A stretch of 64,000 nucleotides of DNA, taken from positions 1,292-65,291 of the IMG/VR virus record IMGVR_UViG_3300025889_000109; one strand, 5' to 3'. The notes under the pieces are model-generated. The model was not told the DNA's origin. It was given only the letters and a program-made list of their open reading frames with translations, and ran no database searches. The translations under genes were made by a program, and so were the position numbers. This DNA is from a virus (Duplodnaviria; Caudoviricetes). Below are positions 27,455 through 41,184 of the stretch, piece after piece (the stretch's first letter is position 1; each line of letters opens with the position of its first letter).

Positions 27455-27711
27455 AATACAACAACTACGTCTTGTTCTTTAATAACATGAAGTAGTTCGC
27501 CGTTGTAATCTATGCCATAGCCAGCAAATCTGTCGTAATAAATATAATCCCCTGCAATAACTCCTTCAACGTAATTACCAACAGAACATACTTCAGCTTT
27601 TCTATATCGTATTTCATCTTGATGCTTTTCGGTCAAAATTAAGCCTGATTCACTTGGTTTAATCTCTTCCTTAATTAATTTAATTATAATAAATTTATTT
27701 ACCGCTTTCAT
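27451..27711 (-). CDS. groES: Co-chaperonin GroES
   Basis: SGLIL...AEV.SVG..V..GD.I.Y...G...IKEQDV; adjacent to groEL. Confidence 0.85.
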   Translation of the reverse strand: MKAVNKFIIIKLIKEEIKPSESGLILTEKHQDEIRYRKAEVCSVGNYVEGVIAGDYIYYDRFAGYGIDYNGELLHVIKEQDVVVVL

Positions 27712-29261
27712 TGCTCTCTAACGTTAGATATTACACAATCTGCGGACATTATAGTAGTTGCAACCGAAATTGCGTTCTTTAATGCTGTTTTTGTTACAAG
27801 TACAGGATCAATAATACCTTCTTTAATAAGATTTACACCTTCACCCGTTATAACATTAATACCCCAGCCTTTTTTCATATAAGGCCCATAAGTTATACCT
27901 GCATTTGCAAGTATTGTCTTGTATGGGGCTTTTATTGCTTCAAGTAATAATTTACCACCCACTTTATTATCAGTTGATATTTCATCTGCAGCATTATGCA
28001 ATGCAATACCAGCACCAGGTACAATACCTTCTTTTAAAGCAGCTTTTACGGCATATATAGCGTCTTCTACTCTATCTTTCTTTTCTTTAAGCTCAATCTT
28101 AGAATCAGCACCTACATATATGATACCGACTGCACCCGAAAGCATTGCTTTACGTTGTTCAAGCTTTTTCAAAGCATAAGGATTTTTTTCTTCCTTTATT
28201 TGCTTTTCTATTGCTAAGATACGATTTTTAATTTCATCTGTTTCAACATTTGTTGCAATAACTGTATTGTGTTCATCTGTTACAGCTTTTGAAGCAATAC
28301 CTAAACAGCTTTCATCAATTAAATCAAGATCATCACCTAATTCTTCATTAATTACTTTAGCGCCAGTGATAATTGCTAAATCATCTAGCATATCACGGCG
28401 TATTGAAGAAAAACCAGGTGGATCAATAACATTTACTTTAATGTTACCTTTAACTTTGTTCATTATAAGTGCAGACATCACTTGCTGTGATACATTACCT
28501 ATAATTAATATAGCTTTTTTGTGCTTTATAGCGTATTCTAGAACACTTTGTATCTTTCTTATACTTTCTACTTGTGAATCAATAATAAGTACAAGAGGGT
28601 CTTCTAAAACAGCTTTATTTTTTTCTTTATCAGTAATTAAATGTTGTGATTTTAATCCAGAGTCAAATTGTACACCATCAACTGTATCAACATATGTTTT
28701 TTCAGTTTCTGACTCTTCCATTAGTACAACACCGTCTTTACCTACTTTATTATAAGCTTCAGCAATAATGCCACCTAATATTTTATCATTATTTGTGGAT
28801 ATTGTTGCAACATGGTCCAGCATATCTGCTTTTACTTCTTTTGCTGAACTTTCTAAGTGTCTTATTACTTTTTCAGCAGTACTATTTATATCTTCTTTTA
28901 TTTGTCGAAGATCAGGGTTTTCTAATTCCCAATATTTTTTTAAAATGGAGTGTGCGAGGACAGTAGCTGTAGTAGTACCGTCACCCGCTTCCTTAACTGT
29001 TTTTTGAGCTGCCTCCTTAATGAGGGTTGCGCCGATATTTTCGACGGGGTCTATAAGAACCACGCTATTAGCAACAGTCACTCCGTCTTTTGTAACTATT
29101 GGCTTTCCAAGTGCATCTTCATAAATAACGCACTTTCCGGACGCTCCCATTGTAGACGCAACGGCTTTTGCTAGTTTGTCTACTCCGGACATAATTTTAT
29201 TTTGAGCGTCATTGCCAAAAGTTAAATCTTTTACAATTTCGCTTGCATGATTAAATTCCAT
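27708..29261 (-). CDS. groEL: Chaperonin GroEL (517 aa, no GGM tail)
   Basis: TKDGVTVA, AGDGTTTATVLA, EKKDRVEDA, GIVPGAG, GIIDPV.V. Confidence 0.95.
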   Translation of the reverse strand: MEFNHASEIVKDLTFGNDAQNKIMSGVDKLAKAVASTMGASGKCVIYEDALGKPIVTKDGVTVANSVVLIDPVENIGATLIKEAAQKTVKEAGDGTTTATVLAHSILKKYWELENPDLRQIKEDINSTAEKVIRHLESSAKEVKADMLDHVATISTNNDKILGGIIAEAYNKVGKDGVVLMEESETEKTYVDTVDGVQFDSGLKSQHLITDKEKNKAVLEDPLVLIIDSQVESIRKIQSVLEYAIKHKKAILIIGNVSQQVMSALIMNKVKGNIKVNVIDPPGFSSIRRDMLDDLAIITGAKVINEELGDDLDLIDESCLGIASKAVTDEHNTVIATNVETDEIKNRILAIEKQIKEEKNPYALKKLEQRKAMLSGAVGIIYVGADSKIELKEKKDRVEDAIYAVKAALKEGIVPGAGIALHNAADEISTDNKVGGKLLLEAIKAPYKTILANAGITYGPYMKKGWGINVITGEGVNLIKEGIIDPVLVTKTALKNAISVATTIMSADCVISNVREQ

Positions 29262-32393: not shown

Positions 32394-32703
32394 GAGGTAA
32401 ATAAAAAGCAGCCCCACCCGGCTTGAAATATTACGTTAGATAATTATAGGTTATGTATTACACGTAACTACTTGACTACCAGCCACTTAAACAAAACCAC
32501 TTTTACAATACCACCCCCCAACTGTTTGTATATCAATATGTTATGTTTTTAGGTTTTTATATAACTTTTACAAAGTAAACACGAAACTATTTGGATAATA
32601 TATATGAAAATAAATAATAAAGTTTTTAAAAAAATAAAAATAAAATTACAAAGTAAGCACGAAGCAAATTGGATAATATAAATGTAACCAAAAAATAGAA
32701 ATT

Positions 32704-32850: not shown

Positions 32851-32906
32851 TTACAAACTAAATACGAACCTCATCGGATAATATATATGAACTTTAAAAC
32901 ACACAC

Positions 32907-34665: not shown

Positions 34666-34733
34666 TTGCTATACACAATTACAAACTAAACACGACAACA
34701 AACAGATAATACTAACAAATAACAAACACAATT

Positions 34734-34934
34734 ATGAAAACATTTAACAGATACAAACAAAATTTAAAAATGGTTGGTAACGACGTCTATTCATATGATA
34801 CACACGTTGCTGAAATAAAAGACGGTAAACTATACAAATTAAAATGGCATGTTTTAGGGGTTGGCTCAGCGTCACGAACAACAACAAAGCATATTAATTA
34901 CGTCGCAGAAGAATTAAACCTTGAAATTGCATAA
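34734..34934 (+). CDS. Early hypothetical protein
   Basis: VYSY.THVA.I...S.TTTKHINY; flanked by repeats of about 70 bp. Confidence 0.65.
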   Translation: MKTFNRYKQNLKMVGNDVYSYDTHVAEIKDGKLYKLKWHVLGVGSASRTTTKHINYVAEELNLEIA

Positions 34935-35003
34935 TTTGCTATACACAATTTACAAAGCAAACACGACATTATCAGGATAATATTAACAAATAACAAACAC
35001 ACT

Positions 35004-35210
35004 ATGCACTATTTAACAATTTTAGATTATAACTCTGGAATAATTATCCAGATAGACATGGAAGAAGTAACAGGATACGACTACCATTGGTCAACTGAAG
35101 GATTTGAAAACTTCATAACTGAAGACTTAAAACTAAATCTTGATGAAATTAACTGGATGACACATTCAGACCCAGATATTAGAACAAATAGAGATTTTGA
35201 AAACCTATAA
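35004..35210 (+). CDS. Early hypothetical protein
   Basis: Promoter copy 6 plus TAACAAACACAC leader. Confidence 0.6.
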   Translation: MHYLTILDYNSGIIIQIDMEEVTGYDYHWSTEGFENFITEDLKLNLDEINWMTHSDPDIRTNRDFENL

Positions 35211-35224
35211 ATAACAAACACACT

Positions 35225-36060: not shown

Positions 36061-36258
36061 AACTAAAAAAGAAATGCCATATGATTTTTGGAACCACGGT
36101 ATTAATCCAATTTTAGGGTATAGATGGACACAACCACCTATGACACCACAAGAATCAAAACGTAATAAAAATGAATATCCAGAAATTGACGATTACAATC
36201 CAAACACGGAATACTCTGGATAATATTAACAAATAACAAACAATTAAAATTAAATATT

Positions 36259-36489
36259 ATGAACACACAATTACAAAATTACTTAGACCTGTTAAACAAA
36301 GTTGAACGCATTGAAAAATTAACTAATGGCGACTGGGATACAAGATACTATCTTGAAAAAATTATCCCACCACTTTGGGCCGATGGATTTGATGTTGAAG
36401 ATATAATTGATTACATAACAATTAAAATACACAGCACAATAACAAAGCTTGAAAACGAACAACAAATTATAACAACAAACACAAAATAA
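36259..36489 (+). CDS. Early hypothetical protein
   Basis: Downstream of promoter copy 7. Confidence 0.55.
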   Translation: MNTQLQNYLDLLNKVERIEKLTNGDWDTRYYLEKIIPPLWADGFDVEDIIDYITIKIHSTITKLENEQQIITTNTK

Positions 36490-36645
36490 TGGCAGGTAAT
36501 AAATTTGACACACAATTTGCTATACACAAACCAAAAATTTATAGCTTAACTTTCAAAGATTTGTATAATGAAGATTGTACAATGACTGGTACACCAAGTC
36601 AAGTTATAAACTATATACTTAAACAGCAACTATAATATATATAAT

Positions 36646-36827
36646 GGTCCTCTACCACGTTGGCTTCGGTGAGGATAAAGTAGCGTTTTAAGAGCCCAAT
36701 TAAAGGACACCATCATTACTATTATTTTTTTGTTTTCATTTGTGTGTTTGTTAATGCCCTCTTGGGCAGACGTAGCCGGAACGGTTAAGAAGGCTAGGTA
36801 GCCAGCGCCGAATAAAGCTGGCAATAT
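36646..36827 (+). ncRNA. Candidate structured sRNA with a U/G-rich tract antisense to early-gene leaders
   Basis: GC-rich island without a credible ORF; hairpins 36648-36675, 36755-36768, 36773-36796, 36801-36822; tract 36731-36753 complementary to TAACAAACACA..ATG leaders. Confidence 0.55.
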
Positions 36828-36916
36828 GGGCGTGCTAAATACTGACAAAGTTTGAAAATACACTATCGGTATCTATAGGGATGATAGAAGCGAGGGTTCG
36901 AGTCCCTCCACGCTCT
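36828..36916 (+). ncRNA. tRNA-like element (acceptor stem and T arm, no canonical D or anticodon arm)
   Basis: GGGCGTG pairs with CACGCTC; T arm GAGGG-TTCGAGT-CCCTC; internal CTATC/GATAG helix; no encoded CCA. Confidence 0.6.
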
Positions 36917-36936
36917 CTAAATTTAAATCAAACACT

Positions 36937-37206
36937 ATGACAAATCCAATTGACGATCGAATTGAGGCAAAGCTTATATCTAAAATTGCACATTATAGAT
37001 TAAATATTCGTACTCAATTCAGAAACAGACACAACGTTATGTGGCCCGAATTAACTTACAGAGTAATTATGGGTGACATTAAGAATTTAAGAGTATGGTT
37101 ACGCATAGCTGAATTAATCGATGCTGGGCAAGACCGTGTACCAAACAAATCAAAAACCCCGTATGCAATATACCCTGCATACTTAGCTAAACGATTAACA
37201 TTATGA
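36937..37206 (+). CDS. Hypothetical protein
   Basis: 89-aa ORF with AAACACT leader. Confidence 0.55.
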   Translation: MTNPIDDRIEAKLISKIAHYRLNIRTQFRNRHNVMWPELTYRVIMGDIKNLRVWLRIAELIDAGQDRVPNKSKTPYAIYPAYLAKRLTL

Positions 37207-37339
37207 TTATAGATGTACGATCTGAGTATTCAGTATTTATAACAATAGGTACTGAAACATATTATATAGACAATTCAACTGGTGAACATTTAATGGAACA
37301 CTGGGAAACTGATACCGAATATACTAAACCTTTATACTA

Positions 37340-37555: not shown

Positions 37556-37969
37556 ATGGATATTTTAAACAGATACAAAGAAAAGACTTCACCTAAATAC
37601 ATATTAAATTTAGTTGAAAAAGAATTGAATTTACCAAACCTAAAATCTGAAATACGTACACGTGAACGTGTTCAAGCTAGATTTATATATTTTAAATTAG
37701 CTAGAACATTTTGTATGTATTCAAGCTTATCAGCTATAGGCCGTGAGGTAAATCGTGATCATGCTACAGTACTACATGGACTAAGTAGATATGATGAAGA
37801 AGCTAAATACGACATTTATATGGAAGACGTATACAATAAAATATATAATGATATTGTATTGACTAAGTTGCCACCAGCTAAAGAAAAAAATATAGACAAA
37901 GTATTCAAAGATATTATATACCGATTAACTAAATTAGAAAACCAATTAAATGCTATACCCAATGATTAA
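37556..37969 (+). CDS. DnaA C-terminal-like HTH DNA-binding protein
   Basis: R.R..VQARFIY..LAR...SLSAIGREVNRDHATVLHG matches the DnaA domain IV signature. Confidence 0.75.
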   Translation: MDILNRYKEKTSPKYILNLVEKELNLPNLKSEIRTRERVQARFIYFKLARTFCMYSSLSAIGREVNRDHATVLHGLSRYDEEAKYDIYMEDVYNKIYNDIVLTKLPPAKEKNIDKVFKDIIYRLTKLENQLNAIPND

Positions 37970-39803: not shown

Positions 39804-40413
39804 TAGAAACTTAAATTATTTTCACCGGAATAGAATAGTCTATAGACGAGATCCTATAAATGATACCCCTACTGAAATTTTTAGTTGGGGTAAATTTTAT
39901 AAAAGTGGTACTTATGAATGTTATCATTTATTTAGAAATTCTTCTAAAATAAATACGTTTAAATCATTTAAATGGCATATATTTGTATTATGGTACTTAA
40001 ATCCTAATATGAATAAAGAAGATATTTTAGCTTTAGCAAATCATATGGCTAATAAAGATAATGGATTTATAAGTATCAAGCTAAGTAATAACGCCATTAC
40101 AAACCTAATTGATGAAATTTATAAACTTGACCTTGATCAACCACCAAAAAACAAAATGCGTAAAATAATATTTAATGATCATTCAGGGCTAGAAACAAAT
40201 GAGAAGTTGAGCATCGTAGGTAAATTAATAGGTAAGACTAGATTAGCGGAACCAGAAGATATATATGAAGCAATGTTGCATATACATGATGAAAGTAAAA
40301 AAATAACTATATCAAAGATTGCAAAAATGCTTAATGTATCTACAAGAACAATTTATAGGAATATTACTAATGAAATTAGAGAGGAAAAGATTCTATTAAA
40401 TGAAGAAGTATAA
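39796..40413 (+). CDS. DNA-binding protein with a C-terminal HTH (candidate replication initiator or regulator)
   Basis: ITISKIAKMLNVSTRTIYRN. Confidence 0.65.
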   Translation: MSHRNLNYFHRNRIVYRRDPINDTPTEIFSWGKFYKSGTYECYHLFRNSSKINTFKSFKWHIFVLWYLNPNMNKEDILALANHMANKDNGFISIKLSNNAITNLIDEIYKLDLDQPPKNKMRKIIFNDHSGLETNEKLSIVGKLIGKTRLAEPEDIYEAMLHIHDESKKITISKIAKMLNVSTRTIYRNITNEIREEKILLNEEV

Positions 40414-41131
40414 TGTAGAAAATTATATCCGTTATAAAAATGATTTAGACGAGACTCTTCAAAGAAAAATAAAAAATGAAAGAGAAAAAATAATAGTTGA
40501 AAATTTGCCATTAGTTGAAACTATTGCACGTAAGTTTTCTACATCTGATCAAGCATCAGGTGTTTTAGACATTACAGATATGATACAGGAAGGATCAATT
40601 GGATTAATATATGCTGTAGATCGTATTGATTGGGGAACAATAACTGATTCAGTTGATCCGGAACGTACATTGAAATCATTTCTATCAAAGCGAATTAAAG
40701 GTGCTATCCGTAGAGCTATTGATATTAATAGAGGAAATATTAGAATACCTGAACATAAATTAAATGATATGCGCAGAAATTCTGAACAAGAAAAGAAAAC
40801 TATTGAATTATTTTTTAATAGTATATTTTCTAGTATAGACAATGATGAAGAAAAGTTTATGCAGATAGAAGATAAAACAAAAGAATATAATATAGATATT
40901 CTTAATAAATATCTTTTAGGCATAATGGAAGCACACTTAAATATAAAAGAATATGATGTGCTGCGTATGAGCTACGGTCTTGACTGTGATAAAATGTCCG
41001 CTAAAGAAATTGCGGATAAATTAAAAATAGACGGGACGGCTGCTTATGTACGTATTTCGCAGATAAAACGTGATGCAATTAATAAATTAATAGAGAACGT
41101 AGATCCTGCGCAAGTAATTGATTTTGTGTAA
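40400..41131 (+). CDS. Phage RNA polymerase sigma-70-family factor
   Basis: ENLPLVETIARKF..DMIQEGSIGLIYAVDR..IKGAIRRAI..IRIP (region 2); VLRMSYGL..EIA..RISQIK..AI.KL (region 4). Confidence 0.9.
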   Translation: MKKYNVENYIRYKNDLDETLQRKIKNEREKIIVENLPLVETIARKFSTSDQASGVLDITDMIQEGSIGLIYAVDRIDWGTITDSVDPERTLKSFLSKRIKGAIRRAIDINRGNIRIPEHKLNDMRRNSEQEKKTIELFFNSIFSSIDNDEEKFMQIEDKTKEYNIDILNKYLLGIMEAHLNIKEYDVLRMSYGLDCDKMSAKEIADKLKIDGTAAYVRISQIKRDAINKLIENVDPAQVIDFV

Positions 41132-41168
41132 GTTATGATTCAAAATCAATGTAAGTTTGAGTTTAATC

Positions 41169-41183
41169 ATGTAATATATATAA
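41169..41183 (+). promoter_or_regulatory. Candidate middle/late promoter core ATGTAATA
   Basis: The same (A/G)YGTAATA core precedes operons on the minus strand at 61512, 29623, 32290, 32429 and 32456. Confidence 0.45.
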
Positions 41184-41184
41184 T

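Follow-up and report, generated by a model that had tools for sequence, protein, structure and literature searches.

The window analysed here, a stretch of 64,000 nucleotides from a caudoviricete phage whose nearest cultured relatives infect Flavobacteriia, contains on its + strand an early operon that harbors an array of structured-RNA cassettes of about 275 nt (36645-36917). The operon is headed by a copy of the early promoter cassette (TTACAA.., ACACGA, GGATAATAT) together with the common A/C-rich leader (36193..36242, +). This copy belongs to a direct-repeat family with D1/D2 sites at 32568, 32646, 32851, 33288, 34679, 34950 and 36193, and is a putative promoter. The first gene of the operon encodes 76 amino acids beginning with MNTQ (36259..36489, +) and is followed by a gene of 48 amino acids (36489..36635, +), the stop codon of which forms the upstream border of the array, while a gene of 89 amino acids (36937..37206, +) marks the downstream border. 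For genes 36259, 36489 and 36937 no family match was found in Pfam or PHROG, and a blastn search of 36400-37100 against cultured phage records returned no match. Between the two bordering small early genes the + strand carries, in this order, cassette A (36645..36716), a linker composed of a U-run and a G/U tract (36717..36753), cassette E (36754..36827) and a tRNA-like element of the tmRNA-TLD kind (36828..36917). The tract itself spans 36731-36753, with its core at 36740-36751. With a GC content of 0.39-0.51 over 36700-36850 compared to about 0.27-0.33 in the flanks, part of this array had stood out as a GC-rich island in an earlier sequence-only reading, in which it was taken for one small RNA with four hairpins.

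Related arrays were found by searching with gene 36937, and the conserved C-terminal coding sequence of gene 36489 served as anchor pattern. At the array site of these relatives the cassette order varies, the elements encountered being A, C, D, E, F, G, H and a TLD or, in some relatives, a true tRNA-Met. The cassettes are freely exchanged between related phages, each independently of the others, as follows from a cassette E that is identical at 74 of 74 positions in relative L012 despite a flanking protein of only 76% identity, and from near-identical strains, present in two DNA runs of two studies, that lack exactly 36828-36917. In L137 a chimera of cassettes C and D is joined at a short common sequence and the tract is deleted. 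The island is therefore not a single four-hairpin RNA, since A, tract and E shuffle independently, with the tRNA-like element following as a fourth part, and its stability in single-sequence folding against shuffles is unremarkable as well (z -0.77 and -0.60).

These phages trade no fewer than eight unclassified structured-RNA cassettes in the manner of gene cassettes. Phage tRNA clusters are mosaic, and the array resembles them in placing stable RNA genes, presumably co-transcribed, between early or middle genes with a content that varies among relatives; unlike in such clusters, most of its cassettes (A, C, D, E, G and H) are not tRNAs and belong to no Rfam family. An Rfam search, which the sequence-only reading had named as a check, gave no match at the gathering score for the whole window (Rfam 15), and on 36400-37100 chance-level matches only (E 1-7), apart from a tmRNA T-arm, so that cassettes A and E and the tract match no family at gathering score or low E. 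In seven relatives nothing besides tmRNA- or tRNA-type matches was obtained at E ≤0.1. A candidate hammerhead in cassette C′ was rejected, as by eye CTGACGAG is not kept in cassette C. Literature searches turned up neither the array nor the tract nor TLD-only tmRNA mimics in Flavobacteriia phages; the 8,495 candidate structured RNAs from IMG/VR in PMC10690425 may include the cassettes.

Cassette A occurs in 20 copies in the relatives, 16 of which are unique, and its structure was read by eye from these copies. The 5′ half is conserved, its 34-35 nt being 88-97% identical to copies in L009, L011 and L012, whereas the 3′ half is unmatched and specific to the window. The hairpin at the loop TTGGCTT is found, likewise by eye, in ACG/CGT, CTG/CAG and CCG/CGG variants. 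Cassette E consists of three hairpins with the stems GCCC/GGGC, TAGCC/GGCTA, which carries ACGGTTAA in its loop, and GCCAGC/GCTGGC. In the second of these hairpins two of the four predicted pairs are changed on both sides, and a shorter variant of the cassette exists in L132 and L144. It had been proposed that GCCCAA of the island pairs with TTGGGC and thereby displays the tract in a loop. Both motifs lie where they were reported (36694-36699 and 36762-36767), but the display helix is not conserved: GCCCAA is situated in a 3′ half of cassette A that only one of the 16 unique copies has, and TTGGGC comprises the loop and 3′ strand of cassette E's own first hairpin.

The element at 36828-36917 is built from a 7-bp acceptor stem, a hairpin K with a conserved 20-nt loop where a tRNA has its anticodon arm, one additional hairpin and a T-arm whose loop reads TTCRAnT. 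The window element matches the Rfam tmRNA model (RF00023) in the T-arm only (13.8 bits, E 0.0021), while the elements of relatives align to this model from end to end with 28.1-38.3 bits, the interior of the model being deleted; all of them score below the curated Rfam tmRNA score of 47 bits. An alignment with 14 relatives contains 19 pairs, seven of which are changed on both sides, with acceptor stem and T-arm kept, and in the consensus fold two pairs of the T-arm are changed on both sides. The window element has G2:U71, G3:C70 and a discriminator U and hence does not carry the alanine identity of G3:U70 and discriminator A; G3:U70 is present in 27 of 33 related elements. An mRNA-like domain was not found within the 90 nt of the window element, which has no tag frame and in which no frame ends. 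Furthermore, ARAGORN reported no genes in the window, the tRNA model (RF00005) had no match there at the gathering score, and an exact T-arm/acceptor pattern had no match in viral contigs.

For mycobacteriophage DS6A a tmRNA without tag frame, designated 'TLD only', is described, which is reported to inhibit the tmRNA of the cell, perhaps because it titrates SmpB (PMC4131195, PMC11915505). Going by what these reports state of it, the element at 36828-36917 and its relatives are alike in consisting of little beyond the tRNA-like domain of tmRNA. Differences are found in the phage group and the host phylum, in the missing G3:U70, the discriminator U, hairpin K and the extra hairpin of the window element, as well as in its location within a shuffling array and its absence from near-identical strains. 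TLD-only tmRNA mimics are common in environmental phages, the earlier reports cited describing a single mycobacteriophage.

Of 38 related arrays, 28 have an intact G/U tract, and in all 28 it lies on the + (transcribed) strand. Throughout the arrays it stands directly 5′ of a stable stem, the next element 3′ of the intact tract being D in 16 arrays, H in five, E in three, G in two and the end of a short contig in two. L137, L152, L163, L170 and L173 lack it, and L015 and L132 have a shortened version. Within the window the core has a single exact occurrence (36740-36751), and the three copies with one mismatch are minus-strand images of leaders at 34993, 35214 and 36475. While the placement of these copies is striking, motif counts over the whole window are unremarkable: AATAACAAACA with at most one mismatch has 10 matches versus 6.4 expected (11 of 100 shuffles reach as many), and TTGTGTGTTTGT with at most two mismatches has 16 versus 11.5 expected (12 of 100 shuffles). 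Both the tract and its targets are of low complexity, GU set against CA repeats, and A/C-rich starts may serve translation alone.

On the minus strand the window does encode the MKTKK-stop peptide that had been reported, but this is not conserved in the relatives. No conserved minus-strand gene accounts for the tract, because its ATG is missing or shifted in most relatives, MKTKK is missing as well and a conserved ORF was not found; a 77-aa minus-strand ORF (36630-36863) covers three independently shuffling cassettes. The anti-start triplet CAU (CAT in the DNA) is not conserved in the relatives either.

With respect to early start regions, the sequence facts listed in the sequence-only reading, including the position of the 23-mer tract and its reverse-complement matches, all proved correct. 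The best predicted partner in the window is the start region of gene 34734 (34720..34742, +), which matches the tract at 20 of 23 positions with a duplex energy of -23.3 kcal/mol and is also recovered as inverted repeat I3 (87%). Exact 12-nt complements are located in the leaders of gene 35004 (34991..35002, +; -16.3 kcal/mol) and gene 35225 (35212..35223, +; -18.6 kcal/mol), and shorter exact runs of 9 nt at 32897 and 36234 and of 10 nt at 36474. This complementarity goes beyond base composition: for 36 early ORF starts, the tract surpasses all 200 of its mononucleotide shuffles in both minimum and mean duplex energy, and 13 of the 36 starts are at -12 kcal/mol or lower compared to an average of 3.0 for shuffles. 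Leaders of the window average -10.8 kcal/mol versus -8.9 kcal/mol for segments within genes. In the relatives the mean duplex energy is better than that of shuffles in 11 of 11 cases at p ≤0.05 (a set containing L149, a duplicate of L016), albeit with complementarity weaker than in the window, and the minimum energy is better in only five of 11 at the same threshold. The best duplexes of the relatives reach just -13.5 to -18.3 kcal/mol; the very strong match to gene 34734 is particular to the window.

The only partner kept across all clades is a complement of the tract core in the first codons of gene 36259 (36262-36270). Homologues of this gene begin with ATGAACACA.. in 46 loci, 39 of which have the tract downstream, and none of the six loci with a homologue beginning ATGAAT.. 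has the tract. To judge from these sequences, the link between the tract and the ATGAACACA start holds at the level of clades and may go back to a single evolutionary event. The start of the 36259 homologue is the top predicted target in seven of 13 distinct genomes, where it ranks first among 13-56 ORF starts (L009, L010, L015 in a tie, L016, L065, L133 and L160), while in the window it ranks only 10th of 53 predicted targets. Pairing of the tract with the start of the gene after the array, at which whole-array folds had hinted, was also considered and rejected; the duplex energies do not bear these hints out, being weak outside of D-type arrays (-8.6 to -11.8 kcal/mol).

It is quite improbable that the tract has no function and is simply an inherited GT run of low complexity, its fit to A/C-rich leaders arising as a by-product of strand composition. 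The whole-window motif counts and the ordinary single-sequence folds would agree with such an origin. However, the tract is kept in clades in which the neighbouring protein is about 50-60% identical and the surrounding cassettes have been replaced, and none of the 200 shuffles of the same composition pairs equally well.

As to its transcription, the 13-mer TAATATATATAAT ahead of cassette A (36633..36645, +) has exactly two copies in the window, the second, identical one being at 41172-41184, and a promoter role is conceivable. In relatives the AT-rich sequence before cassette A is related to this 13-mer, not identical. At 36633 there is neither an equivalent of the -35-like part at 41157 nor a convincing consensus promoter. 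The consensus scan for sigma-70 promoters and terminators gave 63 promoter-like sites versus 71 expected, and no terminator-like sites on the + strand within 36193-37300; a promoter and terminator forming an own transcription unit for a tract RNA were thus not found. Bacteroidota promoters have a -33/-7 motif, for which inspection by eye of 15 arrays yielded no consistent match in or around the tract. Contrary to the suggestion that the RNA is made later in infection, the tract is located within the early operon behind promoter copy 36193 and no sign of later timing is seen. Metatranscriptome run X20 provides three contigs in this region (35032-35182, 36290-36496 and 36474-36696), which carry no strand information and none of which extends over the tract.

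The interpretation given in the sequence-only reading is partly supported. In its full form, that is, a separate late small RNA made of A, tract and E that has a dedicated promoter at 36633, presents the tract in a loop closed by GCCCAA/TTGGGC and silences the starts of the early class as well as A-rich host starts, it is very improbable. The exact 13-mer common to 36633 and 41172 and the strong complementarity statistics speak in its favour. On the other hand, the closing helix is not conserved, the three parts shuffle independently, the tract directly follows the stop codon in many relatives without A or the 13-mer, the -35-like part is lacking at 36633 and no terminator-like site follows E.

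A different partner of the tract is found in arrays with cassette D. In 12 of the 16 arrays in which the tract precedes D, an A/C-rich arm located 3′ of D pairs with the tract, forming a helix of 8 bp that is 95.8% paired across the 12 D units; when the strands are slid out of register, just 32-46% of the cells pair. Three pairs of this helix are variable, with changes from G-C to G-U only, and covariation is weak in that no pair is changed on both sides. To the eye, the A/C arm behind D is similar to the start of gene 36259. In the window, E and the TLD fill the place of D, so that the arm is missing and the tract sits between stable hairpins. An intact core without arm is present in the window, L012 and L131, and the tract is also kept without cis arm in the H-type (five) and G-type (two) arrays, which come from clades with no more than 51-70% identity in the flanking protein. 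When 20 arrays were folded whole, the mean probability of being unpaired was 0.09-0.37 for the tract, which is mostly paired with a nearby CA motif.

Processing stems are known to flank stable RNAs, for instance the stalks of rRNA operons and the RNase III sites of T7 early mRNA. By analogy, tract and A/C arm of the D unit could be such a stem, since they form a lower helix, an asymmetric internal loop and an upper helix around a structured RNA; they differ in that cleavage of the D unit is putative and that the tract of the window has no 3′ arm. The tract could then be a structural or processing arm only, with no regulatory target: in the D unit it would serve as the 5′ strand of a long outer stem, for example a stalk cut by a double-strand RNase to free the cassette, and in the window it would be what remained once D and its arm had given way to E and the TLD. 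This explanation is a serious one, even if rather unlikely. It agrees with the presence of the complementary arm in 12 of 16 tract-D arrays, with a helix whose changes preserve G-U pairing, with the shortened and degenerate tracts of the armless E-type arrays L015 and L132 and with the complete loss of the tract from some natural genomes. It does not account for the H- and G-type arrays or for the intact armless cores, and the persistence of start-region complementarity across clades is left unexplained.

The composition of the tract could also matter at the level of DNA. GT-rich DNA favours recombinase pairing, and the tract might be a GT/CA junction for cassette-swapping recombination or be bound by a protein that recognises the early leaders as well. 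Behind three early promoter copies the motif recurs, the block common to the window and L012 starts at the tract and extends through E, the L137 chimera joined at a short common sequence lacks the tract, and natural gain and loss of cassettes is observed. A role of this kind is nevertheless unlikely, as a DNA site could face either way whereas the tract is on the + strand in 28 of 28 arrays, and as every change in the arm replaces C by U across from a G, a pattern more in keeping with an RNA helix than with a protein site. Moreover, any conserved sequence could serve recombination.

The tract is best explained as an ancient and conserved RNA strand, lying outside any cassette, that pairs with A/C-rich start-type sequences. 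As an antisense strand it may mask start regions, either in cis or after processing, a reading that the sequence comparisons suggest and that is put forward tentatively. In most relatives the tract pairs in cis with the A/C arm behind D. In the window, its best predicted partners are the starts of early genes 34734, 35225 and 35004, and the clade-wide partner is the start of 36259, the first gene in the tract's own operon. Masking could take place in cis on the operon transcript, or in trans after processing of this transcript, for example if RNase P cuts at 36827/36828 and thereby makes a 3′ end at this position.

A similar arrangement is described for the small RNAs FopS and GibS of Bacteroides thetaiotaomicron, in which a single-stranded seed adjoining a stable hairpin pairs with the start of a polycistron's first gene and prevents its translation in a system without Shine-Dalgarno pairing (PMC11697453). 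Like the seed of FopS/GibS-type RNAs, the tract is conserved and complementary to target start regions. As far as these RNAs are portrayed in that source, further common features are the phylum, which is that of the likely host of the phage, the position beside a stable hairpin and the first-gene start as predicted partner. According to the same source FopS and GibS are stand-alone genes with promoter and terminator of their own, whereas the tract is positioned inside an early phage operon among RNA cassettes, with no terminator-like site. No sequence relation exists between FopS and the array, the Rfam match to FopS being elsewhere and at chance level (E 5.2).

If the tract masks starts, it would represent a phage antisense regulator directed against a whole class of the phage's own early mRNAs, acting in a phylum whose translation initiation dispenses with Shine-Dalgarno pairing and about whose post-transcriptional control little is known. 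For uncultured marine and freshwater Flavobacteriia phages, the early-to-middle switch would then be open to direct test. A considerably wider and improbable extension of the masking proposal would regard the array as a toolbox. Flavobacteriia phages would use a conserved G/U antisense strand on interchangeable stable RNA scaffolds in order to switch off translation of their own early operons in a self-timed manner via A/C-rich, Shine-Dalgarno-free starts; the D-type arm would be a target mimic that holds the strand until D is reshaped or cut, and the neighbouring TLD mimic would simultaneously disable host ribosome rescue. The cassettes, the TLD mimics and hairpin K, whose one conserved loop is carried on different scaffolds, are candidates for RNA-based host takeover or counter-defence.

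The GC-rich island between the 48-aa gene (36489-36635) and the 89-aa gene (36937-37206), whose local rise in GC is borne out, had been taken for one four-hairpin sRNA in a sequence-only reading; comparison of 49 distinct downstream regions, the window included, instead reveals a shuffling array of RNA cassettes in an early operon. The 89-aa protein served as one query for relatives (7 and 12 loci), and the stretch coding for the conserved C-terminus of the 48-aa gene product led to a further 11 viral and 53 metagenome loci. RNA modules are present in 38 of the 49 regions, and 11 lead straight into ORFs. The arrangement of the modules, here called A, C/C′, D, E, F, G, H, I, TLD (an element resembling the tRNA-like domain of tmRNA) and a true tRNA-Met, takes many forms among the relatives, the order in the window being A (36645-36716), a G/U tract (36731-36753), E (36754-36827) and TLD (36828-36917). 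We consider this reading of the island as an array very probable. When window and relatives were searched against Rfam, no cassette matched any family.

Exchange of the cassettes is seen at several levels. Cassette E is identical at 74 of 74 positions in the related locus L012, where the adjacent protein is only 76% identical, and the window's cassette A has only its 5′ half in common with the other 15 unique A copies. Two DNA runs, each from a different study, contain near-identical strains in which precisely 36828-36917 is missing and three other bases stand instead; the 90-nt TLD cassette (junctions 36827/36918) varies naturally in presence and absence. That cassettes recombine with one another is shown directly by L137, where the array after the anchor gene holds a C/D chimera joined at a short shared sequence, the tract being deleted along with half of C and half of D. 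Structural support varies, with changes on both sides in two of four pairs of E hairpin 2, one compensatory pair in each of the D helices, and support by eye only for A. Two A-rich single strands, a short hairpin and a 7-bp helix characterize cassette D (L009, L010, L013, L019, L095, L133 and others), a conserved small RNA; by eye the 7-bp helix appears as ACCGTCG/CGGCGGT versus ACTAACG/CGTTAGT. The cassette matched no Rfam family and may be a fold that binds a ligand or a protein. In cassette A an internal 6-nt palindrome is kept while changing from TAGCTA to TAATTA (L123 and L163 versus the others), which would suit a loop-loop dimer contact.

The viral record comprises 65,291 bp at 32% GC, nearly all of it within the window, and encodes a GroEL-like chaperonin (27708-29261, minus strand; PHROG 5725, E 1.7e-132), a primase/helicase, a ribonucleotide reductase, a sigma factor (40400-41131, plus strand; PHROG 351) and a small protein with a DnaA C-terminal helix-turn-helix domain (37556-37969, plus strand; PF08299, 42.5 bits). 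The hosts of the nearest cultured relatives are Cellulophaga, Tenacibaculum, Riemerella and Flavobacterium, and the best of these relatives, Cellulophaga phage phi10:1, shows 42.6% identity in the primase/helicase. Early leaders are A/C-rich and devoid of Shine-Dalgarno sequences. The early region holds seven copies of a roughly 50-nt promoter-like cassette (32568, 32646, 32851, 33288, 34679, 34950 and 36193), in which TTACAA.., ACACGA and GGATAATAT are the conserved blocks and which departs from both the sigma-70 and the Bacteroidota promoter consensus. The shared leader follows three of these copies (34679, 34950 and 36193) and is thus the 5′ UTR of early genes proximal to a promoter. The island is located downstream of the copy at 36193 and of the 76-aa gene 36259, and no plus-strand terminator-like site was found between 36193 and 37300. 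None of the 76-aa, 48-aa and 89-aa proteins matched a Pfam or PHROG family. The 13-mer TAATATATATAAT, pointed out earlier ahead of the island and at a candidate middle promoter, indeed has exactly two copies in the window, at 36633 and 41172.

The G/U tract is where it was described, and its reverse complement matches early start regions as claimed: 20 of 23 positions are complementary to 34720-34742 (inverted repeat I3), exact 12-nt complements lie at 34991 and 35212, and exact complements of 9-10 nt at 32897, 36234 and 36474. Motif counts in the window are not significant (10 versus 6.4 expected, and 16 versus 11.5 expected). The placement of the copies, unlike these counts, is informative: the tract core (36740-36751) has itself as sole exact copy, and all three copies with one mismatch are images of the leaders at 34993, 35214 and 36475. 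Against 36 early ORF starts the best duplex reaches -23.3 kcal/mol, with gene 34734, and none of 200 tract shuffles attained the observed minimum or mean, so that the duplex energies of the tract exceed what composition provides.

Among the 38 arrays the tract is conserved with an intact TGTGTGT core in at least 28, a count that leaves out L144 and L145 (cassette order as in L132); it appears shortened or degenerate by eye in L015 and L132, is absent from L137, L152, L163, L170 and L173, and the contig of L134 stops short of its position. Wherever present it is on the plus strand. It is followed by D in 16 arrays, H in five, E in three and G in two, and by the contig end in two. In deeper clades it comes right after a stop codon and U-run, and in the clade of the window it is preceded by an inserted A, either alone or together with F and C. 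The tract might instead be a junction or operator acting at the DNA level; its constant strand speaks against this reading, which we hold to be improbable. The minus strand over the tract does read MKTKK and then stop in the window, as had been stated, but neither this peptide nor the CAT anti-start is conserved in relatives.

Predicted pairing with start regions recurs in the relatives. In all 11 relatives tested, each with at least five upstream ORF starts, mean pairing of the tract with these starts beats 100 shuffles (p ≤ 0.05); 12 loci were left out (three in which the anchor pattern failed, six with fewer than five leaders and three lacking the tract). The single best duplex beats the shuffles in only five of the 11 and is modest (-13.5 to -18.3). 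The fit of the tract to A/C-rich start regions goes beyond composition, and its conserved partner is the start of gene 36259. The homologues of this gene begin with ATGAACACA.. in 46 loci (same-contig duplicates included), 39 of which have the tract downstream, and six loci in which the start is ATGAAT.. have no tract. Among 13-56 ORF starts per genome, the 36259-homologue start ranks first in seven of 13 distinct genomes and third to sixth in four, and was not found in two; in the window it is only 10th of 53. In L065 extra codons at this start create an 11-nt complement of the tract. That the tract has no function at all is quite improbable.

In D-type relatives the tract also has a partner in cis. 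The tract is followed by D in 16 arrays, and in 12 of them an A/C arm, by eye resembling the start of gene 36259, is present 3′ of D and forms an 8-bp helix with the tract outside an asymmetric internal loop and the inner stem of D. Over these 12 D units the helix is 95.8% paired and has three variable pairs, all G-C to G-U and none changed on both sides, a pattern that fits an RNA helix without proving it; sliding the D structure out of register as a whole lowers pairing to 32-46%. Whole-array folds place the tract mostly in pairing with the nearest CA motif (P(unpaired) 0.09-0.37), and, except in D-type arrays, it pairs only weakly with the start region of whichever gene follows the array. 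The tract may be a purely structural or processing arm of which the window copy is a relic; the cis helix is in keeping with this reading, which leaves the fit to early starts unexplained and which we rate as unlikely, albeit the strongest competitor of masking.

Three readings are nested, each stricter than the one before: the array, action of the tract by RNA pairing with A/C-rich sequences, which we favour slightly, and masking of early start regions in cis or in trans, which we put forward tentatively. For masking, the tract would be transcribed, would be free in the RNA of the window, and its pairing would block initiation. Masking, the structural arm, the DNA-level element, absence of function and the full original model together account for nearly all of the probability. 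That model, a separate late sRNA with loop display and host targets, is very unlikely. Both GCCCAA (36694) and TTGGGC (36762) are present, yet the proposed display helix is not conserved: GCCCAA falls within the window-specific half of A, and TTGGGC is part of E's own first hairpin. The sequence-only reading is confirmed as an observation and partly supported as an interpretation. The putatively expressed tract would act much like the Bacteroides sRNAs FopS and GibS, whose seed, located beside a hairpin, base-pairs where translation of a polycistron's first gene starts (PMC11697453); having no transcription unit of its own, it falls outside that kind as defined. The literature searches yielded no description of array or tract, although the structured-RNA catalogue of PMC10690425 may list some cassettes.

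The element at 36828-36917 consists of a 7-bp acceptor stem, a T-arm with canonical loop, a hairpin termed K (36841-36866) and an extra hairpin. Hairpin K has a conserved 20-nt loop and replaces the anticodon arm in the window and 14 relatives, whose alignment contains 19 consensus pairs, seven of them changed on both sides. In L140, where the array comes right after the anchor gene, K resides inside an H-like stem outside the TLD; K behaves as a portable sub-module. Identification as a tRNA or standard tmRNA was rejected, ARAGORN calling nothing at the element and Rfam matching its T-arm only (as tmRNA, E 0.0021). Six relatives align to the tmRNA model from one end to the other while lacking its interior (28-38 bits, below the Rfam cut-off of 47 bits; E 1e-7 to 5e-12). 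A pattern scan for T-arm and 3′ acceptor strand returned 98 viral stretches, 59 of them not called by ARAGORN; a matching 5′ strand is present in 47 unique candidates, 33 of which were not called, and 27 of these 33 have G3:U70. The subtype of the window, L132 and L144 lacks G3:U70 and has discriminator U. Since RNase P acts on the 5′ ends of tRNA-like structures, a cut at 36827/36828 would leave the A-tract-E RNA upstream of it with a defined 3′ end.

About 2.3% of phage genomes encode a complete tmRNA (PMC9004378). For mycobacteriophage DS6A a TLD-only tmRNA has been recorded, a type of molecule that reportedly inhibits cellular tmRNA, perhaps through SmpB titration (PMC4131195 and PMC11915505). 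The window element is a divergent member of this kind, deviating in three of the family's defining tests. Short (69-102 nt) TLD-like RNAs that have an acceptor stem and a T-arm yet lack a tag frame are found in many unrelated viral contigs (L014, L019, L024, L034, L041, L043, L065, L095, L133, L140 and others). In a more distant clade the array closes with a true tRNA-Met (CAT anticodon, 63-65 bits) where the window has TLD (L008/L018, L015, L016, L017, L047, L095, L110, L133, L147, L176), and in L047 and L110 it directly follows a TLD. In a clade without the G/U tract, one or two small cysteine-rich, zinc-finger-like ORFs are situated between the 48-aa gene homologue and the RNAs (L041, L043, L047, L087, L098, L110), the stop codon of one abutting the 5′ end of the TLD.
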